A stretch of DNA of 62,822 nucleotides, the filler included. It is 6 parts of 6 records of this genome, joined end to end, with 100 filler letters (N's around TTAATTAATTAA, not from the genome) between each part and the next. Parts side by side here need not be neighbours in the genome. Positions count along the whole stretch, not along the records: positions 1 to 24,665 come from SRR20825015_364; 5 more parts are not named here. One strand, given 5' to 3'. A program made the position numbers and the translations under genes. The notes beneath the pieces were generated by a model. The model was not told the DNA's origin and did not search any database. It saw only the letters and a list, made by a program, of their open reading frames with translations. Below, piece after piece: positions 5,524-51,263 of this stretch; within the stretch, counting starts at the first letter, position 1, and every line of letters starts with the position of its first letter.

Positions 5524-5566
5524 GCCGCTTCAGGCTGAACCGCAACAGACAAGAAGGATCCTCCCC

Positions 5567-6013: not shown

Positions 6014-6054
6014 TCGATCAGCGCCCGCACCTCCCTTCATCCGAGGATATTTCC

Positions 6055-6948: not shown

Positions 6949-6990
6949 TCCAGGCTGATCACCGCGACGCCCCTTTCATGAGGAACCGAT

Positions 6991-7509
6991 ATGGCCAGAC
7001 AGGCGAAAAAGAAGGCACAGGTCGAGACTGTCGCCGAACAGGAAGCCCGCAAGACATCACGGTCCGGAAGCGCTCCATCGGGAAGCGAGCCGTCCGTCAC
7101 AAACTACCCGGCGGCTACCGGCGAGAACGAGGAACGCGGGGTAGAGGCCTCAGGCAAAAGAGGTCAGCCCACTGCTGCAAGCGGTTCTCCCACCGAGGAC
7201 GAACAGAACCGGACGACCGAGCACTCAGGCACAACAGCATGGCTGGCGCTGCAGGAGCTTGGCGAAGAAGAGGCGCGCAGGCGCTATCCTCGCGTCATGG
7301 AGGCCCTACAGGAGTGGGCGAAAGACGCGGAGAGTCGCGATCTGGTCAAGGCCGGCCCCACCGTTCGCATCGCTGCCAGGCGCGAAGGTTTTCGCCGCTG
7401 CGGCATGGCCCACCCGAAGGCTGAAACGGACTACTCTGGCGAACAGTTCATCCCCGACGAACTGGAACAATTGCTGTCCGAGCCCGGACTGGCGGTGGAG
7501 CTGGTCTGA
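6991..7509 (+). CDS. Mu gp35/HI1506-like protein
   Basis: C-terminal RIAARREGFRRCG...LLSEPGLAVELV domain directly after gpT. Confidence 0.75.
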   Translation: MARQAKKKAQVETVAEQEARKTSRSGSAPSGSEPSVTNYPAATGENEERGVEASGKRGQPTAASGSPTEDEQNRTTEHSGTTAWLALQELGEEEARRRYPRVMEALQEWAKDAESRDLVKAGPTVRIAARREGFRRCGMAHPKAETDYSGEQFIPDELEQLLSEPGLAVELV

Positions 7510-7514
7510 ACGCC

Positions 7515-7943
7515 ATGGCCTATTGCACGCTTCAGGAGCTGACGGATCGCTACTCGCAGCGGATGCTGGTCGAGATTTCCGACCGGGCCGACGCACCTAC
7601 CGGCGCGGTCGACACCGATCTGATCGACCGGGCGATTGCCGATGCCGATGCGCTGATCGACGGCTATCTGAAGGTGCGCTATCGGCTGCCACTGGCGAGC
7701 ATCCCGCGCCTGGTGAAAGACCTGTCGCTGAGGATCTCGATCTACTACGCCCATGCTCATGTTGCCTCCGACAAGATCCGGCGCGACTACGAAGAGGCAC
7801 TCAGCACCCTGAAGCACATTTCACAGGGCCTGATCCGGCTCGACCTCGATGGCGCCGAGCCCGAAGCATCGGGTGCTTCCGAAGTGCGCACGAACAATCC
7901 CGAACGGCCGATCACTGCAACCACCATGAAGGGCTATATCTGA
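7515..7943 (+). CDS. Mu gp36-like head-tail adaptor (DUF1320)
   Basis: MAYCT...AIADADALIDGYL..RY.LPL motif. Confidence 0.9.
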   Translation: MAYCTLQELTDRYSQRMLVEISDRADAPTGAVDTDLIDRAIADADALIDGYLKVRYRLPLASIPRLVKDLSLRISIYYAHAHVASDKIRRDYEEALSTLKHISQGLIRLDLDGAEPEASGASEVRTNNPERPITATTMKGYI

Positions 7944-8473
7944 TGGTCCGTTCGACAGGCTCTGAAGGCGCGCGCATTGACCTTGCCGGCCGGGAGGAAA
8001 CGCTTTCCTTTCTCGCCAGTGCGGTTGATCGGACCGACGACAAGCGTGGGCTGTTCGACGCCATCGGCGCTTCGCTGGTGCTGTCGACGCAACAGCGTTT
8101 CGAGCAGGAGGAAGACCCGGAAGGCGATCCCTGGCCGGCATCGCTGCGCAAGCTTCTGGAAGGGGGCCGGACGCTCACCATGACGGCGCGCCTTCAGACA
8201 TCCATCACTCATCTGGCCACCGAAGGTTCGGTCGCGGTCGGCACCAATGTCATTTACGCCGCCATTCACCAGACCGGTGGCACCATCCGAGCAAAGACTC
8301 CGAGAGGTCTGCGTTTCCGCTCGCCCGGCAATGGCGGATGGGTGACAAGACAGGAGGTCACCATGCCGCGACGCGCCTTTCTCGGACTCGATGAAGACGA
8401 TGCTGCAGAGATCCGGGCGCTATGCGCAGACTGGCTCGAAGCGGAACAGGACGACGGTCATGCTGGTGGCTGA
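7943..8473 (+). CDS. Mu gpG-like virion morphogenesis / tail completion protein
   Basis: RFEQEEDPEGDPW, VGTNVIYAAIHQTGG, MPRRAFLG motifs. Start coupled to gp36 stop (TGATG). Confidence 0.88.
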   Translation: MVRSTGSEGARIDLAGREETLSFLASAVDRTDDKRGLFDAIGASLVLSTQQRFEQEEDPEGDPWPASLRKLLEGGRTLTMTARLQTSITHLATEGSVAVGTNVIYAAIHQTGGTIRAKTPRGLRFRSPGNGGWVTRQEVTMPRRAFLGLDEDDAAEIRALCADWLEAEQDDGHAGG

Positions 8474-8900
8474 TCTGGTTGACCGCATCGAGAGCAGCGT
8501 CGCCGCACTCGCCGGTCGTACGCAAACCGCTGCCGAGCTGTCGGAACTCATTCGCCGAAAAGCCCTGCCGCAGGCATCGCCATTTGCTTTCGTTCTTCCG
8601 CTTGGGCTGGCGGCACAGGGCCACGGCGAGGCCGGCGCGCATCATTTCACGCAGGCGGTCGACGAGACATTCGCCGTGGTTCTCTTCGCTCGTGCCTCGG
8701 GCGATCTGACTGGCGGGAAGGCTCTGCCGGGCATCGATGCGCTTGTCTGGTCGATCATCGGTGCCGTTTGCGGCTGGGGGCCAGAAAACGCAATCGGCGT
8801 CTTCCATCTGCGCCGGGGGCAGCTCCTGTCTGCGGAAGCCGGAGCGGTGATCTACCAACTCGATTTCGGGCTTCGTGAACAGGTGAGGATCGTCGCATGA
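8460..8900 (+). CDS. Tail terminator protein (Mu gp37-like)
   Basis: Position and size. PQASPFAFVLP, GAVCGWGP and YQLDF motifs. Confidence 0.75.
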   Translation: MLVADLVDRIESSVAALAGRTQTAAELSELIRRKALPQASPFAFVLPLGLAAQGHGEAGAHHFTQAVDETFAVVLFARASGDLTGGKALPGIDALVWSIIGAVCGWGPENAIGVFHLRRGQLLSAEAGAVIYQLDFGLREQVRIVA

Positions 8901-9040
8901 ACGATACGTCGAAAACTGCGGATCGTCCTCCGCTTCCCACCGTCGGGGGCAGTTTTGTGCGCCGGAAAGATGGTTCGATCGTGCCTGCGGAAAAAACATC
9001 ACCGGTAGCGACGTCAAAGAGCGCAAAGAAGGAGGATTAA
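8897..9040 (+). CDS. Small hypothetical phage protein (47 aa)
   Basis: Manual translation MNDTSKTADRPPLPTVGGSFVRRKDGSIVPAEK... ATGA overlap upstream, abuts tail tube ATG. Confidence 0.65.
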   Translation: MNDTSKTADRPPLPTVGGSFVRRKDGSIVPAEKTSPVATSKSAKKED

Positions 9041-9973
9041 ATGCCGATCAAATGGCGGTCGAAGATCCTGCTTGCAAAGATCGAGGCATCCTATGGTGTC
9101 GATGCGGCGCCCACCGGAGCTGCGGATGCGATCCTTGCCACCAATATCGTGCTCACACCGATGGAAGGTCAGGACGTTTCAAGGGATCTCGAGCTGCCCT
9201 GGCTTGCCGCCCAGGCGACCATACCTGCAGGTCTGCATGTGCGCATCCAGTTCCGGGTCGAGCTCGTGCCCTCGGGAACTGCTGGAACGGCACCCGCCTG
9301 GGGACCTCTCCTGCGGGCCTGCGCCGTGGCCGAGACGATCACGCCGGCGACCAGCGTGGTCTACAATCCCGTATCCGACAGTCATGAAAGCGTGACCATA
9401 CATTTCTGGATTGGCGGAACTCGGTATGTGGCGCGCGGATCGCGCGGAACGGCCGTCATGCGCTATACCGCACAGGGCATTCCCTATCTCGAGTTTGACT
9501 TTCGCGGTCTCTTTACGCTTCCGACCGAGGAGGCCCGTCCTGCCCCGACGCTGACCGCCTTCCTGAAGCCAGACCTCGTCACGAGTGCAAGGACACCCAC
9601 ATTCGAGATCGGGGCCCAGCCCTTCGTCATGCGCTCCTTTGCACTCGATCTCGGCAATGCGCTTGAAACGCGCTTTCTTGTCGGCTCGGAAACCGTGTTG
9701 ATCACCGACCGGACCGAGAGTGCGTCGGCACAGGTCGAGGCGGTATCACTCTCGACCTTCGATCCCTACGCAGCCGCAAACGATCAGTCATTGCTCGCGG
9801 TCCAGCTCGTGCATGGTACCGATGCCGGGCGCATTGCCACGCTCGATCTCGCGTCTGCGCAACTGCAGCGACCAGCGGGGCTTGAGAATGCCCAGGACGT
9901 TCTCGAATGGCCGCTGCGCCTGGTTCCGCTGCCGAGCGCCGGCAACGATCAATGGGTTTTGACGCTGACCTAA
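9041..9973 (+). CDS. Phage tail tube protein
   Basis: ILLAKIEASYGVDA and GTAGTAPAWGPLLRAC motifs. About 310 aa. No sheath gene present. Confidence 0.82.
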   Translation: MPIKWRSKILLAKIEASYGVDAAPTGAADAILATNIVLTPMEGQDVSRDLELPWLAAQATIPAGLHVRIQFRVELVPSGTAGTAPAWGPLLRACAVAETITPATSVVYNPVSDSHESVTIHFWIGGTRYVARGSRGTAVMRYTAQGIPYLEFDFRGLFTLPTEEARPAPTLTAFLKPDLVTSARTPTFEIGAQPFVMRSFALDLGNALETRFLVGSETVLITDRTESASAQVEAVSLSTFDPYAAANDQSLLAVQLVHGTDAGRIATLDLASAQLQRPAGLENAQDVLEWPLRLVPLPSAGNDQWVLTLT

Positions 9974-10020
9974 CATCACTCAGGGTGCCGGTGCAGCCCG
10001 AACCATCAGACGGAGGACAC

Positions 10021-10350
10021 ATGACCTACAGGCTTGATCCAAGTCCGCAATTCTGGGCTCGCGTTACGGTCCGACGCCCCGGCGAACAGGCGGAGCCTGA
10101 AACCTTTCGTGCAAAATTTCAGGCGTTGGCGATCGATGCATTCAACGAGCACGATCTTTCGACGGAAGAAGGAACACGTGCCTTCCTCGACGAGGCTCTG
10201 CGTGATGTGGATGAGGTCGAGACGATGGACGGTTCACCGCTCTCCTTTACGGATGCGGTGCGCGCGCAAATGATTGGCGCTCCGCATCTCAGAGCCGCCC
10301 TTGTGTCCGCCTATATGGCCGCATTCCGAGAGGCAATAACGGGAAACTGA
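10021..10350 (+). CDS. Tail assembly chaperone (gpG-like)
   Basis: SD GGAGGA, ATG at 10021, ends with slippery G GGA AAC TGA. Confidence 0.8.
   Translation: MTYRLDPSPQFWARVTVRRPGEQAEPETFRAKFQALAIDAFNEHDLSTEEGTRAFLDEALRDVDEVETMDGSPLSFTDAVRAQMIGAPHLRAALVSAYMAAFREAITGN
10341..10347 (+). other. Programmed -1 ribosomal frameshift site GGGAAAC
   Basis: XXXYYYZ heptamer at the chaperone stop. The -1 frame is open from 10341 to 10748. Confidence 0.85.
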
Positions 10351-10748
10351 TTGCCGCCGCGCGCGCATGGGCGAAAGGCGCGCTCGAGGATGGCGGCGAT
10401 GCGGATGCCTGGCGGGAGGCGATTGAAGATGCACGGCGCTGGGGAATGGATGAGCTCGGTATCAGCCGCCTGAAGGCAAGGCTATCGGGCCGGCAGGAAC
10501 CGGAGTTCAACGGCGTCTGGCCCGCAAACCGCGCGGCCATGAATGCATTTCTGGCGGCTGCCTCACAGTGGCGGACCACCGTCTTTCCGGAAGGAGGACA
10601 ATTGAGAACCATGTGGATCGGCCTTGATTATGCCGGCGCGACCGCTGCCTGGGAACGGCTGGGCCTCGACGTCCCGGCCGAGACGTTCGCTGGCGTGCAG
10701 GTGCTGGAGATGGCGGCAAGGACGAGCCTCAACGGTGGAGAGGCCTGA
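10341..10748 (+). CDS. Tail assembly chaperone gpT-like portion (DUF1799-like), expressed as frameshift fusion
   Basis: VWPAN..A...F..AASQWR...GLDYAG motif. In -1 frame relative to the chaperone. Confidence 0.8.
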   Translation, partial: GKLIAAARAWAKGALEDGGDADAWREAIEDARRWGMDELGISRLKARLSGRQEPEFNGVWPANRAAMNAFLAAASQWRTTVFPEGGQLRTMWIGLDYAGATAAWERLGLDVPAETFAGVQVLEMAARTSLNGGEA

Positions 10749-12736
10749 TGTCGCTGCGGCTTTCGCTGGTAATCGAGGGCGATGCCGCCGGAGCCAGAAA
10801 GGCTCTGCAGGAGACCGCCGGCGGGGTTGAGGATCTTGGCAAGAAGGCAGACGAGGCGTCGCGCAAGATCGAACGCGTCGGCCGGATCGAATGGAATGAC
10901 GCGGAGTTTGATCGGGCAAGAAATGGGCTAAAGGCAACGGCCGATGAAGGGGCTCGTGCAGCTGAGAACGTGTCGGATGCGGGCGATGCCGGTGCAAGGG
11001 CAGCTCCTGCATTCGCAGGGGTCGGAGATGCGGCCGGCGCGGCCGGAGAAAAGGTTTCCAACCTGAAAACGGCGCTGATCGGTGCCGCAGGCGGTTTGGC
11101 TGCGGGCGTCGCGATCACGGCTGTCGGTGAAGGTCTCAAACTTGCTGCCGGCGCTGCCGCCGATCTCTTCCGAGAGATCACCTCGAACCAACCGATGATC
11201 GAGCGGGCACTGAAAGGTCATGCAGCGCTCGTTGGCCGCATCAGGGGCGCGTGGGCCGAAGCTGCCGGTGCTGCCTCATCCTATGGCCTCAACGCCGAGC
11301 CAGTTCTCCGGTTCGAAAGCCAGCAGACCATCGGCCGGCTTGAGAACGCAGCCCAGGGATCGCAGCGAGATCTGTTTCAGAAAAGCGATGCGCTCAGGCC
11401 GTCGGACGTACTCGGCAATCCATTCGGCCACTTCGGCCCCATGCGTGAGACCGTTGCAGAGTTCCGCAAGGAACTGCGAGAGGGCCAGGCCGATGTCATC
11501 GCGTTCCGTCGCCAGGTTGGCGAGATTGCAGAGGCGTTGCCGAAGACCTCTCCGTTCCGGCAACTCGCCGAAGAAATACTGGAGGACACCAGAGCCGCAG
11601 CCGAGCTGCAGGCCGAGCTGGAAAGATCCCGCGATCTCCTGAGAGGCTTGAAGGGTGATGCCGAAGCCTCGGCAACAGCGCTTGGTGGCAAGGCGGACAA
11701 GTACAGGACGCTGCAGAGTGACGCCAGCGCCGCCGGCGAAGCGATTGAAACAAGCTCGCAAGACATTCGCGCCTCGGGTGAAGCGGCGGCAGGAGCGGTT
11801 CCTGCCCTTGCCGAGTATGATCGGCTGTTGAAGTCGATTGCCGGCGGTCAAGCAACTCCGGCAGAATTGGCTGGCTCGCCGGCACGTGCAGCGTTGACGC
11901 CTTTGACGGAAGGCCGCTCATTCGCCGGGGGCGGTTTCACCGGTCACATGCCGACGGACCGCATCGCCGGCGTGGTGCATGGGCGCGAATATGTTTTTGA
12001 CGCCGCTGCGACGGCACGGATCGGTGTGGCCAATCTGGATGCCATTCGTGCTGGCGTGTCGGGCTATGCCGGTGGTGGCTTTGTGACGACGCAGGCACGG
12101 ACCTACGGAAGCGCTTCACCCGCCTCGATGAGATCCTCACCCTTCACCGCCATAGCGGAGGACTTCGAGCTTCTGTCCGGATCTCTCCATCAGTTTTTGT
12201 CTGCCATTGCAGAGGGGCAGGATGTCATGTCATCGCTTGCTGGCGTCGTTGACCGGGTCAGCCAACGGTTTCTGGACTTCGCCTTCAGGGCGCTCGATCA
12301 GGCGATGTTCGGCGGCGGTGGTGGTGGCGGACTGATCGGCGCCCTGGTGGGTGTGGCAGGTCAGGCTCTGGGGTTCGGCGGGTTTGGGGCAGGAAGCTTT
12401 CCCCCCGCACCGATGGCGCCCGTTGGTCTCTATCATGGCGGCGGACAGGTTGGCGCGCAGCCGCTCAACACCCGACCCGCACCGGCCTCGCTGTTCATCG
12501 GTGCGCCGCGCATGCATTCAGGCGGATTTCTGAAACCTGGCGAACGGCCGATCATCGCCATGGACGGCGAAGAAATCGGCTGGCCCGATCAGCTTGCTCG
12601 CAAATACGCCTCCGGCCAGACGATCGTCAATCAGTTCCATATCGAGACGCCGAACCCGAAGGCCTTCGCCGAGAGCCGGGCGACGGTCGCCCGCGCAGGT
12701 GCCCGCTTCGCCGGCCGCTTCGCGAGGTACAGCTGA
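10748..12736 (+). CDS. Tail tape measure protein
   Basis: 662 aa, Ala/Gly-rich, FAGGGFTG, AGVVHGREYV and YHGGG motifs. Follows the chaperones. Confidence 0.88.
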   Translation: MSLRLSLVIEGDAAGARKALQETAGGVEDLGKKADEASRKIERVGRIEWNDAEFDRARNGLKATADEGARAAENVSDAGDAGARAAPAFAGVGDAAGAAGEKVSNLKTALIGAAGGLAAGVAITAVGEGLKLAAGAAADLFREITSNQPMIERALKGHAALVGRIRGAWAEAAGAASSYGLNAEPVLRFESQQTIGRLENAAQGSQRDLFQKSDALRPSDVLGNPFGHFGPMRETVAEFRKELREGQADVIAFRRQVGEIAEALPKTSPFRQLAEEILEDTRAAAELQAELERSRDLLRGLKGDAEASATALGGKADKYRTLQSDASAAGEAIETSSQDIRASGEAAAGAVPALAEYDRLLKSIAGGQATPAELAGSPARAALTPLTEGRSFAGGGFTGHMPTDRIAGVVHGREYVFDAAATARIGVANLDAIRAGVSGYAGGGFVTTQARTYGSASPASMRSSPFTAIAEDFELLSGSLHQFLSAIAEGQDVMSSLAGVVDRVSQRFLDFAFRALDQAMFGGGGGGGLIGALVGVAGQALGFGGFGAGSFPPAPMAPVGLYHGGGQVGAQPLNTRPAPASLFIGAPRMHSGGFLKPGERPIIAMDGEEIGWPDQLARKYASGQTIVNQFHIETPNPKAFAESRATVARAGARFAGRFARYS

Positions 12737-13368
12737 TGCCGGCGCCGTTCCTCGATGCCGCGATCTTCCCGGTCCATGTCTCGGCCGGCTCGCCCGGCGG
12801 TCCGGACTGGCCTGCCGAGATCGTCCAGCTCGCGTCTGGACGAGAGGAACGCAACAGCGCCTGGGCTTCACCCCTCAGGAGTTACGATGCCAAATATGGG
12901 GTGCGAACCCCAGCCGAACTGTATGAGGTGCTGTCCCTTTACCATGCCGCCATGGGGCGACTGTCCGGGTTTCGCTTTCTCGACTGGACCGACTACCGTT
13001 CAGCAGCTCCGCACCTCACGCCGACTGCCACCGACCAGCAATTGGGGCTCGGCGACGGGACGGAAACCTCGTTTCAGCTGTCCAAGCGATACTCCTTCGC
13101 CGGAGCACATCACGATCGCAGGATCACCCGGCCCTTTGGCACGATCCTTGTGGCCGTCGATGGTGCGCCGCAGGCAGGAGGTTTCACCATCGACCACACC
13201 ACCGGCGTCATCACCTTTGACGAGGCTCCCGCAAACGGTGCCGTTCTCACCTGGGGTGGACAGTTTCACGTGCCGGTGCGCTTTGACTGCAGGCTCGACC
13301 AGATCTCTCTGCGCACGGCGGCAATCGGCGACATCCCGTCGATATTCCTGAAGGAGCTGCGCGAATGA
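12736..13368 (+). CDS. GTA-like distal tail protein (DUF2460/TIGR02217)
   Basis: SGREERNSAW, GRLSGFRFLDWTDY, FHVPVRFD motifs. Confidence 0.9.
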   Translation: MPAPFLDAAIFPVHVSAGSPGGPDWPAEIVQLASGREERNSAWASPLRSYDAKYGVRTPAELYEVLSLYHAAMGRLSGFRFLDWTDYRSAAPHLTPTATDQQLGLGDGTETSFQLSKRYSFAGAHHDRRITRPFGTILVAVDGAPQAGGFTIDHTTGVITFDEAPANGAVLTWGGQFHVPVRFDCRLDQISLRTAAIGDIPSIFLKELRE

Positions 13369-14261
13369 AGACAATGCCCGCGGGCCTTCAGGACATGCTC
13401 GATACCGGCGTTACAACCCTGTGCAATTGCTGGCGCGTCGAACGGCTCGATGGGGCTGTCTTCGGCTTCACCGATCACGACCGACCGCTTACCTTTGCCG
13501 GTGTCACCCACAAACCGGAAACCGGTCTCACAGCCTCGGAAGTCTCTTCTTCGCTGGGGCTAGCCGTCGATACGATGGAGGTTGAGGGAGCGCTGTCTTC
13601 AGACGAGATCACGGAAGACGACATCGCGCTTGGAGCCTGGGACAACGCAGCGATCGAGCTCTGGCGCGTCGACTGGTCGAACGTCGCCAATCGGGTCATC
13701 CTGCGGCGCGGGTCGATTGGCGAGGTAACGCGTGGCGATTTGGCCTTCATGGCCGAGCTGCGCGGACTGACTCATGAGCTCAATCAGGAGAGTGGCAGGA
13801 AATATCAGCGCGCCTGCGATGCAGTGGTTGGCGACGACCGCTGCCGGGTCAATGTCGACCAATCCGCTTTCCGTGGAAACGGAACCGTCTCGGTGGCGCT
13901 TGATGACCGCCTGATCGCGGCCACCGGTCTAACGGGATTTTCCGACGAATGGTTCGCACAGGGAGTGCTCCAATGGACGTCCGGAGCAAATGTCGGAACC
14001 GTAACCGAGGTGTCGGGACATCTGAAGCAGGCGGATGGCCTGTCGGCATTGACGCTCTGGACCCGGGCGGGACGCACGATCAACGCCGGTGATACGTTCA
14101 CAGTCACAGCCGGTTGTGACAAACGCTTCGCCACCTGCCGACAGAAATTCTCCAATCAGCTCAACTTTCGCGGATTTCCGCATGTGCCGGGCAATGACTT
14201 CGCGCTCTCGACGGCAAAGAGGTCCGGGGACAATGACGGCGGGAGCTTCTTCAATGGTTAG
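13365..14261 (+). CDS. GTA-like baseplate hub protein (DUF2163/BR0599)
   Basis: CWRVERLDG..FGFTDHD and AGCDKRFATCRQKFSNQLNFRGFPHVPGND motifs. Confidence 0.92.
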   Translation: MKTMPAGLQDMLDTGVTTLCNCWRVERLDGAVFGFTDHDRPLTFAGVTHKPETGLTASEVSSSLGLAVDTMEVEGALSSDEITEDDIALGAWDNAAIELWRVDWSNVANRVILRRGSIGEVTRGDLAFMAELRGLTHELNQESGRKYQRACDAVVGDDRCRVNVDQSAFRGNGTVSVALDDRLIAATGLTGFSDEWFAQGVLQWTSGANVGTVTEVSGHLKQADGLSALTLWTRAGRTINAGDTFTVTAGCDKRFATCRQKFSNQLNFRGFPHVPGNDFALSTAKRSGDNDGGSFFNG

Positions 14262-14790
14262 GCCGCGCGCAAGAGATGCGCGGGTCATGGACTGGGATCG
14301 CGCGTTCCGTCGGAAGATCGCAGCCGTGGCGCGCAGCTACGATGGCGTTCCCTATCGTCACCAGGGGGCGGACCGCCGCGGATGCGACTGCCTGGGGCTG
14401 GTGCGCGCGGTCTGGCGCGAGCTCTACGAAGACGAGGCGGAGATCCCGCCAGCCTATGGTCCCGGATGGGCCGATGCCAGCGGCGTTGAAACACTTTTGA
14501 ACGCCGCAGGAAGGCATCTTGAAGCGCGTCCGGTTGCCGCCATGGCACCGGGTGATCTGCTCGTATTTCGCTGGCGCCCGCACCTGGCGGCGAGACATTG
14601 CGGCATTCTGGTTGCAGATGACCGCATGATCCATGCCTATGAGTCCGCCGGCCGTGTCGCAGAAGGGCATCTCGCCGAGGCCTGGCGGAAGCGGATCGCC
14701 GGGGTGTTCGCATTTCTGTACCCGCCGGGGGGCTGTGGCGTTGCGAACAGCTCGCTGAATGGCAGTGCCGGAAACGCGGAGAAAAGCTGA
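14254..14790 (+). CDS. NlpC/P60 phage cell wall peptidase
   Basis: PYRHQG, GCDCLGLVRAVW, ARHCGI, MIHAY motifs. Start may be 14287. Confidence 0.9.
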   Translation: MVRPRARDARVMDWDRAFRRKIAAVARSYDGVPYRHQGADRRGCDCLGLVRAVWRELYEDEAEIPPAYGPGWADASGVETLLNAAGRHLEARPVAAMAPGDLLVFRWRPHLAARHCGILVADDRMIHAYESAGRVAEGHLAEAWRKRIAGVFAFLYPPGGCGVANSSLNGSAGNAEKS

Positions 14791-17700
14791 TGGCCACCAT
14801 CCTTCTCGGCGTGGTGGGCGCTTCCATCGGCGGGACCTTCGGCGTGATTGGCGGTCTGGTCGGACAGGCCGTCGGCGCCCTTGCGGGGTCCTTTGCCGAC
14901 CGCGCCATTGTCTCTGCCCTGACCCCGCCCGTGAAGCGCGAAGGGCCGCGCCTGACCTCTACCGACATCCAGACAGCGACCGAAGGCTCGGACATCGACC
15001 GTGTCTATGGACGCGCCCGTGTGACAGGAGAGGTTTTCTGGGCAACACGGTTCGAAGAGGTTTCGAGAACGGAGCGCTCAGGCGGCAAGGGAATGAAGCC
15101 GAAGGTCGAAGTGACCACCTATCACTACTATGCCAATTTTGCCGTGGGGCTTTGCGAAGGCCCGATTGCCGGGATTGGTCGCATCTGGGCCGATGGCAAG
15201 GAGATCGATCAGACGGAGATCGAGTTTCGTGTGCACAAGGGCTCAGAGTCACAGGCCGTCGATCCTCTGATCGAAGCGAAGGAAGGTTCGGGAAATGCAC
15301 CTGCCTATCGCGGGCTTGCCTATCTCGTCTTCGAACGCCTGCACCTGGAAAACTACGGCAATCGCCTTCCCCAGATTGCCGTTGAGGTCTTTCGACCGAC
15401 CGGTGCTCTGGAGCAGATGGTTCCGGGGGTCGCGGTCATCGGCGCTAATGAAATGGGATTCGAGACAGAAGAAGTTCGCGTTATCGACTTCTTCGCCGGC
15501 GGCATTGCCCTGAACCGGCATACGAGGGTTGACGCCTCCGACTGGCTTGCGTCGATGAACCGGCTGCAGGATCTGGCACCCAATGTCCGGCAGGTGCTGC
15601 TTGTTTTGCCCTGGTTCGGTGACGACCTGAGGTGTGGCTCCTGTAGCTGCCGACCAAAGGTCGACAGTCAGGACAAGGCAACCAATGTTGTGTGGTCGGT
15701 GGCCGGGCTCTTCCGTTCCTTTGCCGATCTCATCTCCCTAGCGCAGGGTATTCCCGCCTATGGCGGCTCGCCATCCGATCAGGCCGTGGTCACGGCAATC
15801 CGCGATCTCAACGCACGTGGAATATCGGTTACTGTCGTGCCCTTTCTCATGATGGATGTGGCGGAGGGCAACGCACTGGCCGATCCCTATTCGGACCATG
15901 CTTCCTCGAGTGGTCAGCCTGCCTACCCGTGGCGCGGCCGCATCACCTGCTCGCCGGCGCCGGGCTTTGCGGGATCGCCCGACAAGACCGCCGGAGCGGC
16001 CGGCCAGGTGTCAGCATTCGTGGGAAGTGCAAGCGCTTCGGATTTCTCATCCAGTGGCGAGGCTGTCGAGTATTCCGGACCGGAGGAATGGTCCTACCGC
16101 CGCTTCATTCTCCATTACGCGAAGCTGGCGGCCATCGCCGGCGGTGTCGAGAGTTTTCTGATCGGCACTGAAATGCGTGGGCTGACACAGGTGCGGTCTG
16201 CGACTGGCGCCTATCCCTTCGTCAACGCGCTGAAAGCGATTGCTGCAGAAGTGCGCTCCCTTCTGGGCGGGAGCGTGAAGATTGGCTATGCGGCCGACTG
16301 GTCGGAATATCACTCCCACCGCCCGGCGGATGGGACCGGAGATGTCTGGTTCAATCTCGATCCGCTATGGTCGGATGCGAACATCGACTTCATCGGGATC
16401 GACAACTACCTGCCAATCGCGGACTGGCGCGACGGCACCGGCCATCTTGATTACAGCCCGACCGGGCCCACCACCATCTATGACCGCACCTATCTGGCCT
16501 CGAACGTCGAGGGCGGCGAATACTACGACTGGTTCTATGCCTCCGATGCGGATCGCAGAGCGCAGACAAGAACGCCGATCACCGATGGCGCTCATGGCAA
16601 GCCCTGGGTATTCCGCCAGAAAGATATCCGCGCATGGTGGGCGAACGCTCATGTCAACCGGCCGGGCGGCAGCGAGAGCGGCGCACCGACCGGATGGGTG
16701 CCTGAAGCAAAGCCGATCCGCTTTACGGAGCTCGGCTGTCCCGCGGTCGACAAGGGGGCAAACCAGCCGAATGTGTTTGTCGACCCGAAATCGTCAGAAA
16801 GCTTCTTTCCGCACTTTTCGAGCCGGGCGCGCGACGATGCGATGCAGCGGGCTTTTCTGGAAACGGTCATCAGCTACTGGTCCGAGAACAACCAGATGTC
16901 TTCTGTCTATGCCGGACCGATGATCGAGACGGAACGGACCTGCATCTGGGCGTGGGATGCGCGGCCGCATCCGTCCTTTCCACAGGATCTGCGCTGGGGC
17001 GATGCGGCGAACTGGGAGCTGGGTCACTGGATCTCGGGTCGTCTGGGCACGGCACCCGGCACGGAAACCGTGCGCACCGTGCTCGAGGATGCGGGGTTTG
17101 CACACCACGAGGTGGCGCCGTTGCCGACCGTGGTCGAGGGTATCACCACGGGCCGCGTGTTGTCGGCGCGTGCGATGCTCGAGGCGCTTCAGACCGTCTA
17201 TCAGTTCGAGGCGGTGGAGACTGGCGGACGACTGAAGGTCTCGGCCCGGTTGGGAGCCCTGCCGGTGGCGACCCTCGACGATGGTGATCTTGCCGTTTCG
17301 GCCGAGAGCGGGGAGCGGCCCGAGCGCTTTCGGCAGACACGGGCACAGGAAACCGAACTGCCTACAGCCATCAAGCTCTCCTATGGCGATCCCGGCCGTG
17401 ATGACCAGCCGGCATCGGCCGAGGCGCGGCGCTCGGCTGGCGGTTCGCGCCGCGTTCTGGAGATCGGCCTGCCGGCGATCATGGCAGAGGGACAGGCAAC
17501 CCGGCTGGCGGAGATCGAGCTCTCGCGGGTCTGGATCGCGCGCGAGCGGGCGGAGTTCGGCCTGCCGCCTTCCATGTTACGGCTCGATCCCGGAGACGTG
17601 GTCGACTTCCTGCCGACCCGCACGACGCTTCGCCTCGCGGAGATCCATGATGCCGGCCTGCGCCGCGCCGAAGCGCACCGCGTGGATCCGCAGGCGGCTG

Positions 17701-18701
17701 CCCCGGTGCCGCGCGCCTCTTCGGCGCCGCCCAGCCCGCCGGTCACGCTTTATCTTGGCGCACAGCTGACGCTAATCGACGGTCCGCTGCTGCGTGATGG
17801 CGATGCCGATGACGCCGCTCATATTGCCGGGGTGATGAAGCCCTGGCGTGCAGGCATGGCAGTCTACCGTTCGGCCGACGATACGGATTTCGCCCTCGAT
17901 ACACTCCTTGTCACGCCCGCCACCGCCGGTGTCACTCTGGAGGACCTCTATGCAGGGCCGGTCTGGCGCTGGGATCGCGGAAACACCCTGAGCGTGCGGC
18001 TTGTCTCAGGCGCGCTCTACTCAGCGACGGAGCGTCAGGTTCTGGACGGCGCAAACGCGGCACTGGTGGAAAACGAGGACGGCGAATGGGAACTTCTCCA
18101 GTTCGCCGAGGTGGCCGCGCTGGGAGACGGCGCCTTTGCACTGACAGGCCTGTTGCGGGGGCAGCGGGGCACGGAACACGCCATGCGCGCGCCGGTTCCT
18201 GCCGGCGCGCGCTTTGTGCTTGTCAATGAGGCGCTGCAGCAATGGACGCTGGATGCCGCTGCCATCGGCCTCTCGCGCAATTGGCGCTTTGGCCCGGCCG
18301 ACCGGGACATCGCTTCGCAGGATTACGATCAAGAGGCGTTCACGTTCAGAGCAAAGGCCCGGCGCCCGCTCTCGCCTGCAAGGTTGAACGGCCACCGGAT
18401 CGCCGCCACTGGCGATTGGCAGCTCACCTGGATCCGGCGCACGCGGATCGGCGGCGATGCCTGGTCGGAAACCGAGGTGCCGCTTGGCGAGGAAGAGGAG
18501 CGCTACCGGCTTGAAATCCTCGACGGACCGGGCGGGAGCGTGCTGCGCGCTGTCGAGCCGACCGAGGCGGGTTTCCTCTACACCGCCGCCCATCAGACCG
18601 ATGATTTCGGTTCACCGCAGACGGGTTTTCACGCCCGCGTTGCCCAGCGCAGCGCCCGCTATGGGCTCGGCATCTGGCGCACCGGATTTGTTTATGACTA
18701 G
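14790..18701 (+). CDS. GTA TIM-barrel baseplate multidomain protein (megatron/host specificity)
   Basis: 1303 aa. YYANFAVGLCEG, YRRFILHYA, YAADWSEY, DFIGIDNY, TELGCPAVDKGANQPN motifs. Confidence 0.93.
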   Translation: MATILLGVVGASIGGTFGVIGGLVGQAVGALAGSFADRAIVSALTPPVKREGPRLTSTDIQTATEGSDIDRVYGRARVTGEVFWATRFEEVSRTERSGGKGMKPKVEVTTYHYYANFAVGLCEGPIAGIGRIWADGKEIDQTEIEFRVHKGSESQAVDPLIEAKEGSGNAPAYRGLAYLVFERLHLENYGNRLPQIAVEVFRPTGALEQMVPGVAVIGANEMGFETEEVRVIDFFAGGIALNRHTRVDASDWLASMNRLQDLAPNVRQVLLVLPWFGDDLRCGSCSCRPKVDSQDKATNVVWSVAGLFRSFADLISLAQGIPAYGGSPSDQAVVTAIRDLNARGISVTVVPFLMMDVAEGNALADPYSDHASSSGQPAYPWRGRITCSPAPGFAGSPDKTAGAAGQVSAFVGSASASDFSSSGEAVEYSGPEEWSYRRFILHYAKLAAIAGGVESFLIGTEMRGLTQVRSATGAYPFVNALKAIAAEVRSLLGGSVKIGYAADWSEYHSHRPADGTGDVWFNLDPLWSDANIDFIGIDNYLPIADWRDGTGHLDYSPTGPTTIYDRTYLASNVEGGEYYDWFYASDADRRAQTRTPITDGAHGKPWVFRQKDIRAWWANAHVNRPGGSESGAPTGWVPEAKPIRFTELGCPAVDKGANQPNVFVDPKSSESFFPHFSSRARDDAMQRAFLETVISYWSENNQMSSVYAGPMIETERTCIWAWDARPHPSFPQDLRWGDAANWELGHWISGRLGTAPGTETVRTVLEDAGFAHHEVAPLPTVVEGITTGRVLSARAMLEALQTVYQFEAVETGGRLKVSARLGALPVATLDDGDLAVSAESGERPERFRQTRAQETELPTAIKLSYGDPGRDDQPASAEARRSAGGSRRVLEIGLPAIMAEGQATRLAEIELSRVWIARERAEFGLPPSMLRLDPGDVVDFLPTRTTLRLAEIHDAGLRRAEAHRVDPQAAAPVPRASSAPPSPPVTLYLGAQLTLIDGPLLRDGDADDAAHIAGVMKPWRAGMAVYRSADDTDFALDTLLVTPATAGVTLEDLYAGPVWRWDRGNTLSVRLVSGALYSATERQVLDGANAALVENEDGEWELLQFAEVAALGDGAFALTGLLRGQRGTEHAMRAPVPAGARFVLVNEALQQWTLDAAAIGLSRNWRFGPADRDIASQDYDQEAFTFRAKARRPLSPARLNGHRIAATGDWQLTWIRRTRIGGDAWSETEVPLGEEEERYRLEILDGPGGSVLRAVEPTEAGFLYTAAHQTDDFGSPQTGFHARVAQRSARYGLGIWRTGFVYD

Positions 18702-18710
18702 GAGGCTCCC

Positions 18711-19454
18711 ATGGTCGATACGACAAAACTCCAACTGCCCCTGATCGCCGCCGACCAGGCCCAGAAACATGTGCCGGTGAATGAGAGCCTGCTGCGCCTC
18801 GACACGCTTGTGCAGATGGCAGTGATGGATCGGGATCTGACGGTGCCACCGGGAAGCCCCGCCGATGGCGATGCGTACATTCCCGCTTCCGGTGCAACCG
18901 GGGCATGGCTCGGGTGGGATCTGAACATCGCCGTCTATAGCGGCGGCGCCTGGGAAAAGCTTGCGCCGCGCGCCGGCTGGCTTGCATGGGCCGAAGATGA
19001 GGCACAGGTGCTGATTTTCGACGGTGCGGACTGGACGTCACTTGCAGATGCGCTCGGCCTGATCACACGCTCTGCCGCAACCACGTTGAGCGAAGGGGCG
19101 GCCGGCAGCGCCAATGCGATCGTCTCGGCCGAAGAACTGCTTTCCGGCCTCTCCGGTGCGAGTGTCGACACGACCATCACCATTCCCAACCGTGCGATCG
19201 TTTTCGGGGTCTCGACAAGGACAGTGACGGAGGTGACCGGTGCCAGCTCATATGATTGTGGCCTCGCAGGTGAAACCTCGAAATTCGGCGGATCGCTGGG
19301 GATTGCAGCCGGCTCAACCAATGCCGGCGTGATCGGCCCTCAGGCCTTCTATGCCGACACGCCCATACGCCTGACCGCCAATGGCAGCGATTTCACCGGC
19401 GGCGCGGTGCGTGTCGCCATCCACTATTTCCTGCCGACGGTGCCGCAATCCTAG
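18711..19454 (+). CDS. DUF2793 tail fibre/adaptor-like protein
   Basis: LPLIAADQAQKHVPVNESLLRLD and PPGSPADGDAYI motifs. Confidence 0.88.
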   Translation: MVDTTKLQLPLIAADQAQKHVPVNESLLRLDTLVQMAVMDRDLTVPPGSPADGDAYIPASGATGAWLGWDLNIAVYSGGAWEKLAPRAGWLAWAEDEAQVLIFDGADWTSLADALGLITRSAATTLSEGAAGSANAIVSAEELLSGLSGASVDTTITIPNRAIVFGVSTRTVTEVTGASSYDCGLAGETSKFGGSLGIAAGSTNAGVIGPQAFYADTPIRLTANGSDFTGGAVRVAIHYFLPTVPQS

Positions 19455-19461
19455 AGGCAGC

Positions 19462-19587
19462 ATCACGGATGGCCAGCGCCCGAAAGCGCCGGCGGCGGGC
19501 CTGTCGCCAAACAAACCCCGCCCGACGATGACCGAAGTTAACCGCCGCACCCGCTGCCCTTTCGGGCGAACGGAGTGTGGCCGTGAT
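19462..19587 (+). promoter_or_regulatory. Structured RNA leader upstream of com
   Basis: Nested complementary segments 19462-68/19581-87, 19477-86/19559-68 and 19491-99/19550-58. Confidence 0.55.
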
Positions 19588-19601
19588 CGGGTTAAATCGA
19601 G

Positions 19602-19805
19602 ATGAAGGATGTTCGCTGTGGCCGATGCCGCGCATTGCTCTTCAGGGCGAACAACGATAGGAGCGAGATTGAGATCAAATGCCGCCGATGCGGCACGATC
19701 AATCATCTGAGGCCGGCCGAGCCCGAACCGGAACGCCAGGAGCGTCCGCCAAGGGAAAGCTCGTGTGGCTCTATCTCCCCCCGGAATGCCTCGACCGCAG
19801 GATGA
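19602..19805 (+). CDS. com: Com family zinc-finger translational regulator
   Basis: DVRCGRCRALLFR...IEIKCRRCGTIN. Sits at the Mu com position and overlaps the downstream modification gene. Confidence 0.9.
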   Translation: MKDVRCGRCRALLFRANNDRSEIEIKCRRCGTINHLRPAEPEPERQERPPRESSCGSISPRNASTAG

Positions 19806-20677
19806 GCTCAAAGGCGTCGCGCTTTGTGCTGGCGTTGGCGGACTGGAGCTCGGCCTCCATGTCGCAGAACCCGGATATCGGACTGTATGTTTCGTCGAGC
19901 GGGAAACCTTCGCTGCGGCCACCCTCGTGGCCCGGATGGAAGACCAGGCCCTGGATCACGCGCCTTTATGGGACGACCTTGCCACCTTCGACGGCCGCCC
20001 ATGGCGCGGCAAGGTTCATATCGTCACTGGAGGTTATCCCTGCCAGCCCTTCTCCTGTGCAGGCCGCAAGCGCGGCGCGCGCGACCCAAGGCACCTGTGG
20101 CCACATATCCGGCGGATTGTCGCGGAAATCGAGCCCGGATGGTGTTTCTTCGAGAATGTCGAAGGACATCTCGACCTGGGATCCGCCAAGGTCATCAGCG
20201 ACCTTCGCAAAATGGGCTACCGCGTCAAAGCGGGCCTGTTCTCGGCGGCTGAGGTCGGCGCTTCACACTATCGCCGGCGGCTCTTCATTGTGGCCCACGC
20301 CAACCCGCAGCCTCTACTGCAACCGGATCGAGGTGGAGCTATCGGAACAGGGATTGAAGCTTCGCCACGATCCGAACCAGACGGGAAGCCAGGTCGCGAT
20401 AGGCAAGGCAGCAAAGCTCTGGACGATGATCTGGCTGATTGTCACGAGTTGCGCGGAGAGGCCGAAATCCTTCAACTTCCGCTCTTCGCACCGGCTCCAT
20501 CTGAGTTTGACCGCTGGGGGGAGATACTCGGCCGGCGACCTGACCTTCAACCCGAACTTCTCGGACTGGCTGATCGGGTGGCCGATCGGATGGACCGCGC
20601 CCAGGCAGCCGGTAACGGAGTGGTCAGCCTGGCTGCAGCATATGCGTGGCGCACTCTCAAGGCTGCCCATTTGTTAG
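19763..20677 (+). CDS. Putative methyltransferase beta subunit in an overlapping frame (motif IX carrier)
   Basis: Frame open across the alpha gene. Contains WPTP and NPNFSDWLIGWPIGWT. GTG at 19763 shares SD AAGGGA. True start may be internal. Confidence 0.7.
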   Translation: MWLYLPPECLDRRMSSKASRFVLALADWSSASMSQNPDIGLYVSSSGKPSLRPPSWPGWKTRPWITRLYGTTLPPSTAAHGAARFISSLEVIPASPSPVQAASAARATQGTCGHISGGLSRKSSPDGVSSRMSKDISTWDPPRSSATFAKWATASKRACSRRLRSALHTIAGGSSLWPTPTRSLYCNRIEVELSEQGLKLRHDPNQTGSQVAIGKAAKLWTMIWLIVTSCAERPKSFNFRSSHRLHLSLTAGGRYSAGDLTFNPNFSDWLIGWPIGWTAPRQPVTEWSAWLQHMRGALSRLPIC

Positions 20678-20715
20678 AATCGGAACTACAGGAAGCTGGA
20701 TATCCTGCAATGTAA
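19765..20715 (+). CDS. C5 DNA cytosine methyltransferase, alpha subunit
   Basis: Motif I LCAGVGG, IV GGYPCQPFS, VI FENV, VIII HYRRRLFIV, X AGNGVV. No motif IX recognisable in this frame. Confidence 0.9.
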   Translation: MALSPPGMPRPQDELKGVALCAGVGGLELGLHVAEPGYRTVCFVERETFAAATLVARMEDQALDHAPLWDDLATFDGRPWRGKVHIVTGGYPCQPFSCAGRKRGARDPRHLWPHIRRIVAEIEPGWCFFENVEGHLDLGSAKVISDLRKMGYRVKAGLFSAAEVGASHYRRRLFIVAHANPQPLLQPDRGGAIGTGIEASPRSEPDGKPGRDRQGSKALDDDLADCHELRGEAEILQLPLFAPAPSEFDRWGEILGRRPDLQPELLGLADRVADRMDRAQAAGNGVVSLAAAYAWRTLKAAHLLESELQEAGYPAM

Positions 20716-20770
20716 ATCTCGGATCGCGAATGATATACTGTCCAAACACGTGATAGTGGGAGGGGAGAAT

Positions 20771-21562
20771 ATGCGTGCTTTGATCATTAGCGTTGTTTTC
20801 GGGTTGACATGGAGCGGTTTGGCAAACGCGCAATGTAGCCATGGAAGTGCATTTTGGACCGCCGAGCACAATAGTGTGCGTCATGTTCTCTATGGTGACA
20901 ACGGCATCAACTATGGCAGCAACATCACTATTGAAGAATGGCGGCAGTCGACCCTTGCATGGACGACCAAGGGGCAGGTCACTTGCTCGAACGGTGCATC
21001 CATCTGTTACGCGCAAATCACGAATGCACGCGAAAACAGCACGTCAGGCGCAGCACCGACAACTACCGATGCTATCATCGAAACTATAGATGAAAACGGC
21101 GATGGGACGGCAGAATGGGTGGTTCTCGCCGCCTTATCGCAGTTGCTTCGGTGGGAGGGTGCGAATGCGACTTGGCATTTGGAACGGGATCCAGGGGAAG
21201 TAGCAAGACCTCCCAACGTTTATAGATTTCAAGGGTGTCGCTCAACTCAAGAACCTACGCAGGAGCTTTCTCGGCAGGTCATTGTCGGGCAGCTCTATGC
21301 AACGCGAGATGTCTGTCAAACCTTCCTAAAGACGGGGGTTCCGGTGCACGCGAACTCCGATGAATTCGACGACGGCTTATGGTGGATGGATGACGAGAAG
21401 GTCGTCGGTTGGGAGCACCACTGTTTGATCGCATCGGCTTACGATGAAACTCTACATTTGGCCTGTGTTGGCGAAGGTGAAGCGCGAACTGAAACGTGGA
21501 GTTATTTGGAGGAAGAAAATCGTCGGCTTGTAAATGGCAAGGAGTTACTTCTTTGTCAGTGA
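20771..21562 (+). CDS. Hypothetical secreted Cys-rich protein
   Basis: Signal peptide MRALIISVVFGLTWSGLANA/Q, SD GGGGAG, multiple Cys. Confidence 0.7.
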   Translation: MRALIISVVFGLTWSGLANAQCSHGSAFWTAEHNSVRHVLYGDNGINYGSNITIEEWRQSTLAWTTKGQVTCSNGASICYAQITNARENSTSGAAPTTTDAIIETIDENGDGTAEWVVLAALSQLLRWEGANATWHLERDPGEVARPPNVYRFQGCRSTQEPTQELSRQVIVGQLYATRDVCQTFLKTGVPVHANSDEFDDGLWWMDDEKVVGWEHHCLIASAYDETLHLACVGEGEARTETWSYLEEENRRLVNGKELLLCQ

Positions 21563-21594: not shown

Positions 21595-22377
21595 TTAAGA
21601 GTGCTCTCGGTTTGCAATCTGGAAATTACAGTTGCGCCATAATTCTTCAGAACACTTTCTCGCGATTTTTCGAGCACCTTCCCAATCAAATGTTGAGCCG
21701 TTGAGCGATAAATGCAGGTGATCTGCAATCTCTACGGTTTTCTCGAGCAACCAGGTCTCATCGCCGTATTTCACCTTTCGCGGTGCTTCAGCCTTTGGCT
21801 TGGAAGGCAGTTCCAGATTGTGAGCGATGTATCGGTCTCTAAAGTATCGAATAGCGGCAAGCTGTTCTGATTGTCTCACGGAGGCGCATTCATTGATGGC
21901 GCAGCGGAGGCGTTCCAACGCGGTACGGCTTTCTTTTTCAGCTTTCTCCTCGCGGTAGGAGTGCATAAAGCTTCGTTTCGCTTCAATTAAATGTGGGTCA
22001 TCAGTCGGATTAAGATCCGTCACCATTAGGTCGTTCAAATAGTAGTCGCGCACCTCTTCAATCACAGAATCTATGATGCCGGTCTCGTCTATTAGGGCGA
22101 TGATCGTCGGAATGCTCTCTCGATCTGCGCTTGGCGGGTCCCAGAGGGCTGCAAGTCGGATCACCTCAAACAAATACATGCTGGTTTGAAACTGATTAAA
22201 CGCATGTCCGGCGTAGGATCGTGGTATCTGGCTGGCAAGTCGGCCGTCATAGATCGTATAGACGTTAGCTTCATGCATCTCAAATAGACCGGTGATATGG
22301 TCGATCAAACGCTCCGTTCTTGACTTTGCAACCTTCAACCGATCCTCTTTGGACCACGATTGGGGGAAACTGGGCAT
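21595..22377 (-). CDS. HEPN domain protein (AbiU2-like)
   Basis: FEVIRLAALWD and HEPN-type RDRYIAH motif. Confidence 0.75.
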   Translation of the reverse strand: MPSFPQSWSKEDRLKVAKSRTERLIDHITGLFEMHEANVYTIYDGRLASQIPRSYAGHAFNQFQTSMYLFEVIRLAALWDPPSADRESIPTIIALIDETGIIDSVIEEVRDYYLNDLMVTDLNPTDDPHLIEAKRSFMHSYREEKAEKESRTALERLRCAINECASVRQSEQLAAIRYFRDRYIAHNLELPSKPKAEAPRKVKYGDETWLLEKTVEIADHLHLSLNGSTFDWEGARKIARKCSEELWRNCNFQIANREHS

Positions 22378-22396: not shown

Positions 22397-23056
22397 CTAG
22401 TCACTTGGAACGCTAGGCGCCTCAACCACCATCAGTCCATCATTACGCAGTGGCCGTTGCAGCGTCTTGGCTTCATCCCAAGGTGCTCTTAGCCATGCGT
22501 CCATCTCGTCTTTCGTCGTGAGAATGACGGGCATGGCCTTCTTGTGCACCGGTTCGACGATGGCGTTCGGCTCGGTGGTGAGGAAGCCGTAGAGTTCGTG
22601 GTCGTCCGCCTCCTCCCGCGCCATACGCTTGCCGTGCCATGCCGTCCACAGCCCGGCGAAGGCGAAGAGCGGCCGATCTTCACTCAGGGCAAACCATGCA
22701 TTCGGCGTGCGCTTATCGCCTTCCTTCCGGCTGCCGGGATCGGGCTCGGCAAAACTCGTTGCTGGCACCAGGCAGCGGTATTCAGGCGAAAGCCATTTGC
22801 GCCAGTGCGCGGACCCGGTGTTGCGGATATTCGTGACGCCGCTGTCATGCTGGCCCTTGATGAACATGGGCGGTGTCGGCATGCCCCAGCGCGCACGCAC
22901 CAGTTCGCGCTCGCCATCCTCTCCAATCCGCGCGATCGGGGCATAGCGGTTTGGATAAACCTGCAGGGAGGGCTCGTTGAAGCCATAGTCCCGGAGGGTT
23001 CCGACAAACTGCCGCAACGCCTCGCGCGTGGTGGTCACGTTGTAGAGATTGCACAT
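22397..23056 (-). CDS. SOS response-associated peptidase (SRAP/HMCES/YedK family)
   Basis: MCNLY with catalytic Cys2, RCLVPATSFAE, FAFAGLW, PVHKKAMPVIL. Confidence 0.93.
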   Translation of the reverse strand: MCNLYNVTTTREALRQFVGTLRDYGFNEPSLQVYPNRYAPIARIGEDGERELVRARWGMPTPPMFIKGQHDSGVTNIRNTGSAHWRKWLSPEYRCLVPATSFAEPDPGSRKEGDKRTPNAWFALSEDRPLFAFAGLWTAWHGKRMAREEADDHELYGFLTTEPNAIVEPVHKKAMPVILTTKDEMDAWLRAPWDEAKTLQRPLRNDGLMVVEAPSVPSD

Positions 23057-51045: not shown

Positions 51046-51263
51046 GAGAAAGCTAGTGTTTTTATTCAAAAGTTAATCTGAAAGCAAGATACTTAAAATT
51101 GAAAAGCGGCATAGCATAAGTTTACGGATGGTGCTTTTGAGTTTACGTATGAAGGTCGGGGGATAATTTTCTCAAAGTTTCGTTAAAAGTGCTTTCACTT
51201 AATTTACCAATCCGATATTTAGCAGTCTAAACACCATAAGTAACCATACAAGACAGATTCAAA

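Follow-up and report, generated by a model that had tools for sequence, protein, structure and literature searches.

The window, that is, the whole analyzed stretch of 62,822 nucleotides (nt) along which all positions are counted, contains a Mu-like prophage remnant with a com gene at its right end and, overlapping the 3' end of com, a gene for a C5 cytosine methyltransferase with two reading frames, alpha and beta. It is rather likely that a Mu-type Com switch precedes this methyltransferase and turns on both chains together, working in a Mu-like manner. Com would bind the CC-AG-GAG loop of a hairpin located 5 nt upstream of the Shine-Dalgarno (SD) sequence and so allow ribosomes to initiate, as in phage Mu, and since two start codons lie 2 nt apart behind a single SD, one Com event would switch on alpha and beta together. 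Switch-on would take place at the end of the late operon of the prophage, where Mu has mom. The locus could be divided into two modules: a portable Com cassette, comprising com, two hairpins in its 3' tail (HP1 and HP2) and the SD at 19751–19756, and a two-chain C5 methyltransferase encoded in two overlapping frames, of which beta carries a WPTP region and a motif-IX-like end. The binding of Com at this site, activation rather than repression, its manner and the activity of the enzyme are what we infer. To our knowledge, translational activation by an mRNA-binding protein is known for few bacterial proteins, of which Com is one, and nearly all work on Com has concerned mom of Mu. The features of the locus are as follows.

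19602–19805, + strand: com, encoding a Com protein of 67 amino acids, a zinc ribbon (CxxC...CxxC) followed by a variable C-terminal tail
19711–19723, + strand: HP1, candidate first Com hairpin, GGC and GCC around the 7-nt loop CGGCCGA, with the motif CC(N)4GAG; columns paired by RNAalifold
19733–19745, + strand: HP2, predicted by RNAalifold, a four-base-pair stem ACGC/GCGU (19733–19736 with 19742–19745) and the loop CAGGA
19751–19756, + strand: SD AAGGGA, read from the sequence as common to both methyltransferase frames
19763–19767, + strand: GUGUG double start, with the beta GTG at 19763 and the alpha GTG at 19765
19763–19805, + strand: stretch in which the Com tail, beta and alpha are all open reading frames (ORFs) (19765–19805 if the beta start is not counted)
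19763–20677, + strand: ORF of the predicted beta chain, 304 amino acids, in the +1 frame of the methyltransferase, with the N-terminus VWLYLP, a "shadow" of the catalytic domain, WPTPT and NPNFSDWLIGWPIGWT
19765–20715, + strand: ORF of the alpha chain from a GTG, 316 amino acids, with C5 methyltransferase motifs I–VIII, a poorly conserved linker and the conserved C-terminal block ...GNGVV

The com product matched the Pfam family PF10122 (Zn_ribbon_Com) with E=1.2e-12 and 47.6 bits, above the cut-off of 22.9, as well as phrog_6417, a "translational regulator" (E=7e-14). Cysteines C6, C9, C27 and C30 were invariant in the alignment of the window Com with those of Mu and B3, and the stop codon of com is TGA at 19803–19805. 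An earlier sequence-only reading of this DNA had called a com ORF ending at 19805 and had described 19765–19805 as coding in all three forward frames; the former agrees with the ORF coordinates and the PF10122 match, and the latter is borne out by the coordinates of the three ORFs. A census of PF10122 over 401 genomes of the phylum gave 3 matches only, too few for use.

The two-frame methyltransferase and its double start

The alpha chain matched PF00145 over residues 16–183 (E=1e-30) and phrog_363 over residues 10–303 (E=2.5e-55), and a tblastn search with it returned 1591 phage records. PCQ, ENV and RxR were invariant in the homologue alignment, as were G283, N284, G285 and V286. The names given to the alpha blocks (motifs I–VIII and X) are those which we take them to represent. 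The third forward frame of the window is open from 19679 to 20677, and its conservation was analyzed in 60 methylase homologues with 38%–81% identity and 41%–68% G+C. This +1 frame was open across essentially the whole gene in all 60, with 0–3 stops versus 3–13 in shuffles of codon order or synonymous codons, while the number of stops in the +2 frame was as expected from the shuffles. The few stops in the +1 frame sit near the 3' end, except in L028 (six stops; this sequence contains a run of N) and L060 (one mid-gene stop). For the homologues with 41%–46% G+C, 7–13 stops were expected in this frame, and yet it is open.

The two frames are conserved in different places. Conservation of the alpha frame is strong in motifs I–VIII and at the GNGVV end and weak in the middle, and exactly there the beta frame is conserved, as WPTP and NPxFSDWxMGWPIGWT, the latter of which we take to resemble motif IX. 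The beta product matched phrog_1008, a "DNA methyltransferase" (E=3.6e-15), and phrog_27243, a family of unknown function (E=7.9e-11); both match the beta frame and not alpha, and these families seem to consist of beta chains. No match to Pfam or NCBIfam was found for the product of this frame, nor any to solved structures (PDB) with a beta profile, and a tblastn search of phages with it returned one record, which is the alternative frame of a homologous gene. Judging from these conservation patterns, the third frame is a real second chain. The two chains would assemble into one active enzyme. A programmed frameshift was ruled out as the origin of beta. In every homologue the +1 frame is open right from the beginning, and the N-terminal peptide encoded there is under selection.

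A single-frame relative was also observed. The annotated methylase of Mycobacterium phage A1SD1 (L061:613–1479) combines the motif-IX-like EWLMGLPRGW with the GNGVVP block in a single frame, and its +1 frame contains only a 40-codon open stretch (LLPTPLARDSKG...), which suggests that single-frame and two-frame relatives of the methylase coexist.

The start region is shared by both frames. The sequence [AGT]TGTG, which places a beta-frame start codon 2 nt ahead of the alpha GUG, was found in 57 of the 60 methylase-anchored loci, and an independent Com-anchored scan revealed the NUGUG double start in all 43 Com-linked C5 loci. Between the upstream stop and motif I, this GUG is the only start codon of the alpha frame in most loci, and AAGGA or GGAG is kept at the position of the SD. 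In L024 and L048, NTGTG is replaced by NTGAATG; the alpha start there precedes the beta ATG by 4 nt, so that the order is reversed and the starts are still adjacent.

The first six codons of beta were compared in 41 distinct sequences. The start codon is followed by W (41/41), L (41/41, from four codons), Y, F or H, then I, L or V (from eight codons), and P (41/41, from four codons), while translation of these nucleotides in the alpha or Com frame yields radically different residues, e.g., H/S/R/Y/P/C. Since the beta frame is constrained at the triple overlap and the other two frames change radically, the selection on amino acids there appears to act on beta, and its first six codons are, on this comparison, under purifying selection. 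Selection on the N-terminus of beta in turn implies that beta is probably translated from the GUGUG point, and both starts of GUGUG would be in use. According to Kohl et al. (2022; PMC9841429), AUGUG and GUGUG sites in E. coli reporters translate both overlapping frames at spacings from 12/14 to 14/16, and the distance between the SD and the starts in the window, read in the terms of that source as 13/15, lies inside this ambiguous range. The sequence-only reading had suggested that both subunits might be gated at once; the conserved NUGUG double start speaks for translation of both frames from one place, and their joint switching is probable.

The end of com relative to the methylase start was compared in 45 com-linked loci. 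In 38 of them com ends 20–38 nt beyond the alpha start, always on the same strand, in 6 it ends 13–66 nt upstream of this start with the com cassette still present, and in one it reads on without the usual stop. The overlap is typical, not fixed; in the window com ends 41 nt beyond the alpha start, the longest among the com-linked loci. At L015:2101–2916, where the com frame lacks the usual stop, it continues for 271 codons and the alpha ORF is shortened to 110 codons; this locus may be a damaged copy.

The hairpins and the Com cassette across viral loci

RNA structure was analyzed in 41 distinct homologous sequences, and covariation was compared with 500 shuffles and with slid controls. For HP2, 98.2% of the alignment cells were paired, and in 30 cells both sides of a pair had changed. 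The closing pair was AU in 11 sequences, CG in 11, UA in 10, GC in 4, GU in 2, UG in 1 and another combination in 2. The covariation score reached 0.441 versus 0.115 in the shuffles, none of which (0/500) attained it, and the slid controls were 15%–55% paired. Covariation falls on the third positions of com codons, which are synonymous sites. HP2 carries the sequence CC-AG-GAG at 19736–19742, and its general form NCGC-CNNGA-GCGN' corresponds to CC(N)2GAG with a C-G closing pair. The Com motif obtained by systematic evolution of ligands by exponential enrichment (SELEX) is CC(N)2-3GAG, placed in the loop of a hairpin that a C-G pair closes (PMC6483171). That HP2 is a conserved hairpin with the published Com recognition motif is well supported by the alignment. 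In the window, it ends 5 nt before the SD and 17 and 19 nt before the two GUGs.

HP1 behaves differently in the alignment: its blocks GAGGCC and GAGCCC, including an AGG codon for arginine, are invariant or nearly so and are kept across cargo classes. Such invariance precludes a covariation test; B3 and more distant loci hold the canonical CC(N)2-3GAG at this place. Helices joining HP1 to the UGGCUC start region were considered as the cause of this conservation and were ruled out, as the blocks are equally kept before cargo without the UGGCUC start.

A search of one collection of viral contigs with an alignment of Com gave 422 relatives; the 80 best were retained and sorted according to the gene that follows com. 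For this purpose, 119 ORFs of at least 150 amino acids located just after com were scanned against Pfam; the sample is biased toward relatives of the window Com. Among these best 80 of 422, the following cargo was found.

C5 methylase (PF00145): 43 loci
N6_N4 methylase (PF01555): 12 loci
D12 adenine methylase (PF02086): 4 loci
matches to GNAT acetyltransferases: 4 loci
Mom (PF25680): 1 locus
Methyltransf_23: 1 locus
remaining loci: family not recognized or DNA too short

A strict hairpin with the Com motif was present at the same place in the com tail in 48 of the 80 Com loci versus 52 of 1990 control windows from the same loci. By cargo, it was found in 26/43 C5 loci, 8/12 N6_N4 loci, 2/4 D12 loci, 3/6 loci of the GNAT group and the single Methyltransf_23 locus (1/1), and it was retained in 8 of the 13 loci in which com is followed by no long ORF or by insufficient DNA. 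Nucleotide homology of the form UGAGGCC..GAGCCC..NCGCC-NN-GAGCGN'..SD extends to the SD and ends at the start of the cargo.

Proteins of about 360–380 amino acids follow the Com cassette in L095:1919–3061, L102:1922–3043, L103:1952–3049 and L118:1943–3028, as well as in L135 and L112, and show weak matches to P-loop (ABC_tran) and GNAT acetyltransferase families. They may represent a further class of Com-gated DNA-modifying enzymes.

Prophage context and alternative explanations

The cassette follows the late genes of the prophage remnant.

4390–19454, + strand: late genes of a Mu-like prophage remnant (Mu head, tail like that of gene transfer agents), ending just before com

These genes encode the I protease (Mu-like_Pro), the major head protein (Mu-like_gpT), a tail tube, a tape measure, a DUF2460 protein, a GTA_TIM tail protein of 1303 amino acids and a DUF2793 protein, and a gap of 147 nt separates the end of these genes at 19454 from com. 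The G+C content, 62% in the window overall, drops after 20700. To the left of 4390, where the G+C content drops to 52%–55%, no transposase, terminase, portal or other phage gene was recognized, and the prophage appears to be truncated on its left side. The proposal that com here stands with a cytosine methylase in place of mom agrees with this arrangement, in which com and the C5 methylase occupy the right end of a Mu-like prophage after the late genes. Judged from gene position only, the methylase would be made in the late phase. A scan of 19300–21000 for promoters and terminators revealed no promoter-like site and one terminator-like site inside com, at chance level, and a search of sequencing runs gave no RNA run with more than 0.05 of the words.

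Other genes were observed around the prophage. Just to the right of its end, the minus strand encodes an AbiU2-type HEPN protein (21595–22377) and an SRAP peptidase (22397–23056); an AbiU2 gene is likewise found downstream in L001, the closest relative locus. A KAP-family nucleoside triphosphatase is encoded to the left of the prophage (96–1592, minus strand). The part from 39000 to 62822 has 34%–47% G+C and very long ORFs, e.g., one of 1860 amino acids at 45487–51069 on the minus strand.

A structure hiding the start was sought in several ways. The helices proposed in the sequence-only reading, GGGA (19753–19756) with UCCC (19776–19779) and AGCUCGU (19758–19764) with AUGAGCU (19802–19808), do exist as complementarity in the window, and they cross, so both cannot form in one nested fold. 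As conserved elements they did not hold up: across the 41 homologues the first was 71% paired and the second 38%–63% paired, neither with covariation, and the whole structure was 59.4% paired versus 56.9% in shuffles. The two inner G-C pairs of the GGGA/UCCC helix are kept in 39 and 33 of the 41 sequences. The predicted fold of 19700–19830 had an energy of –41.6 kcal/mol versus a shuffle mean of –46.2, and 177 of 200 shuffles were at least as stable. The GUGUG was predicted to be less accessible than in dinucleotide shuffles, a control that leaves GUGUG unfixed, in 40 of 41 homologues (mean 0.23 versus 0.48).

Several results weigh against a Com switch working as in Mu. The fold of the window is no stabler than its shuffles (z=+1.17), and in accessibility the window is the exception, with 0.47 versus 0.40 in shuffles. 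A local helix like that of Mu, GCCA/UGGC, was 62.5% paired, the same as in shuffles; long-range pairings of the HP1 blocks with UGGCUC (GGCCA:UGGCU and GAGCC:GGCUC) were 96% paired, being invariant and free of covariation; and a helix between the SD and an anti-SD (CCC/GGG) was rejected, as its 66% pairing equals that of shuffles in a region where the alignment is gappy. Modelled forcing of HP1 and HP2 failed to open the start (from 0.28 to 0.22, more open in 10 of 29 cases). Neither the fold, local, long-range and accessibility analyses nor the forced hairpins demonstrated a structure that hides the start. In addition, the stem of HP2 consists of four base pairs only, the strict hairpin is missing in 32 of the 80 Com loci, and the truncation on the left implies that the Com–methylase module may no longer be used.

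Translational coupling could operate without the Com protein: ribosomes translating com would run through the SD and both starts, opening the mRNA, and the hairpins would serve the com mRNA or be relics. This fits the usual overlap of com with the cargo start on the same strand (38/45 loci) and the lack of a demonstrated occluding structure for Com to melt. However, the cassette is kept in the 6 of 45 loci where com stops 13–66 nt before the start, the covariation of HP2 falls on synonymous sites, its sequence contains the Com motif exactly, and Com of Mu is described as a hairpin-binding activator of mom translation in PMC6483171. We consider coupling of this kind unlikely.

The hairpins could also be a site for autoregulation by Com or for stability of the com mRNA, with constitutive expression of the methylase through an SD of its own. 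The two hairpins are part of the com ORF and accompany com irrespective of the cargo, and 8 of the 13 loci lacking a long ORF or enough DNA after com keep the hairpin. Against it, the spacing of hairpin, SD and start matches that of Mu, in which it is the cargo that is regulated, and the cargo is a DNA-modifying enzyme in 65 of the 80 Com loci, as would be expected of a gate on the cargo. Such a role appears quite unlikely.

Very unlikely is the model originally proposed from the sequence, in which Com would open a start hidden by the GGGA/UCCC and AGCUCGU/AUGAGCU pairings; both are present in the window and the inner G-C pairs of the first are mostly kept, but the low pairing of the second, the lack of covariation, the crossing of the helices and the fold energy speak against it. 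Its broader idea, a Com switch acting on a different DNA-modifying enzyme, is favored by HP2, by spacing as in Mu and B3 and by the conservation of the cassette; only its occluding structure found no support. Finally, it is highly improbable that the third frame is an untranslated accident of G+C-rich DNA and that only Com and a single-chain methylase are made: the G+C content of the window and the absence of Pfam, NCBIfam and solved-structure matches would suit this, but the frame is open in 60/60 homologues, including those at 41%–46% G+C, changes in its first six codons are synonymous or conservative, beta is conserved where the middle of alpha is weak and has PHROG matches, and M.EcoHK31I is a precedent.

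The preferred reading, a Mu-type Com switch acting on both methyltransferase chains, could be extended to the whole family of loci. Tentatively, com with its two hairpins and the SD may form a portable late translation gate that has been recombined exactly at the start codon before at least five unrelated classes of DNA modifiers (two-frame C5, N6/N4, Dam-like, Mom and P-loop/GNAT). For the C5 cargo, one Com–RNA event might then determine when a heterodimeric enzyme is made and in what ratio its two chains appear. The family offers many natural variants of one cassette, with a covarying hairpin, swapped cargo and, before C5 genes, a GUGUG from which two proteins would be made. It bears on how Com recognizes RNA, on whether binding next to the SD can aid initiation in the absence of an obvious inhibitory stem, and on the natural use of ambiguous GUGUG initiation for co-expression of two chains of one enzyme. 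For annotation, genes after com-like ORFs of prophages are likely to be anti-restriction DNA modifiers, and C5 genes of the family found in the window should be annotated in two frames.

Comparison with known systems

The com–mom operon of Mu is a close model. In Nowacka et al. (2019; PMC6483171), Com of Mu is described as a hairpin binder that activates translation of mom. The hairpins of Mu and B3 are as follows.

Mu: AUGC-CUGCGA-GCAU, 5 nt to the SD and 16 nt to the mom GUG
B3: GCGC-CAUCGA-GCGC, 15 nt to the Dam-like ATG

In both Mu and the window, the gene for the zinc-ribbon protein Com runs into the beginning of a DNA-modification gene, and the pair stands at the right end of a genome of the Mu type. 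The SD follows 5 nt, and a GUG start 16–19 nt, after a short hairpin with CC(N)2-3GAG in its loop and a C-G closing pair. Unlike Mu, the cargo in the window is a C5 methyltransferase (PF00145) rather than Mom (PF25680), with two frames from GUGUG, and for the stem CCCAC/GUGGG that holds the start in Mu no conserved local counterpart was found in the window family.

Cargo other than Mom has been reported before. According to Drozdz et al. (2012; PMC3299994), a Com homologue precedes non-Mom adenine methyltransferases in B3 (ORF47/ORF48), FluMu (HI1522.1/HI1523), Pnm1 and Hia5, and as there described, it lies directly before the methyltransferase gene and overlaps it, as in the window. B3 also shares with the window the nucleotide blocks CAUCUGAGG..GAG..CC and both hairpins. 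The cargo of B3, FluMu, Pnm1 and Hia5 consists of single-frame N6-adenine enzymes, whereas that of the window is a two-frame C5 enzyme. A literature search, in which several older papers were covered through citing papers only, found no paper linking Com to a cytosine methyltransferase.

The two-chain enzyme also has a natural counterpart. M.EcoHK31I is a C5 methyltransferase that needs both an alpha and a beta chain, and its beta-coding sequence lies within the alpha gene in a different frame (Lee, Kam and Shaw 1995, cited in PMC2836561). The location of beta in another reading frame within the alpha gene is, on that account, common to both systems. In the description given there, beta of M.EcoHK31I comes from a short ORF internal to the gene, and the target recognition domain is assigned to alpha. 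In contrast, beta of the window is co-extensive with alpha, starts 2 nt earlier at the shared GUGUG and holds the WPTP region.

The ambiguous GUGUG sites of E. coli resemble the window in having two starts 2 nt apart behind one SD, and as presented in PMC9841429, they are mostly starts of single genes with short alternative frames, whereas both frames of the window are long, conserved and would belong to one enzyme. Com with a non-Mom methylase and a two-frame alpha/beta methylase have each already been published, and at the right end of this Mu-like prophage they occur in combination, together with a candidate site of ambiguous GUGUG initiation.

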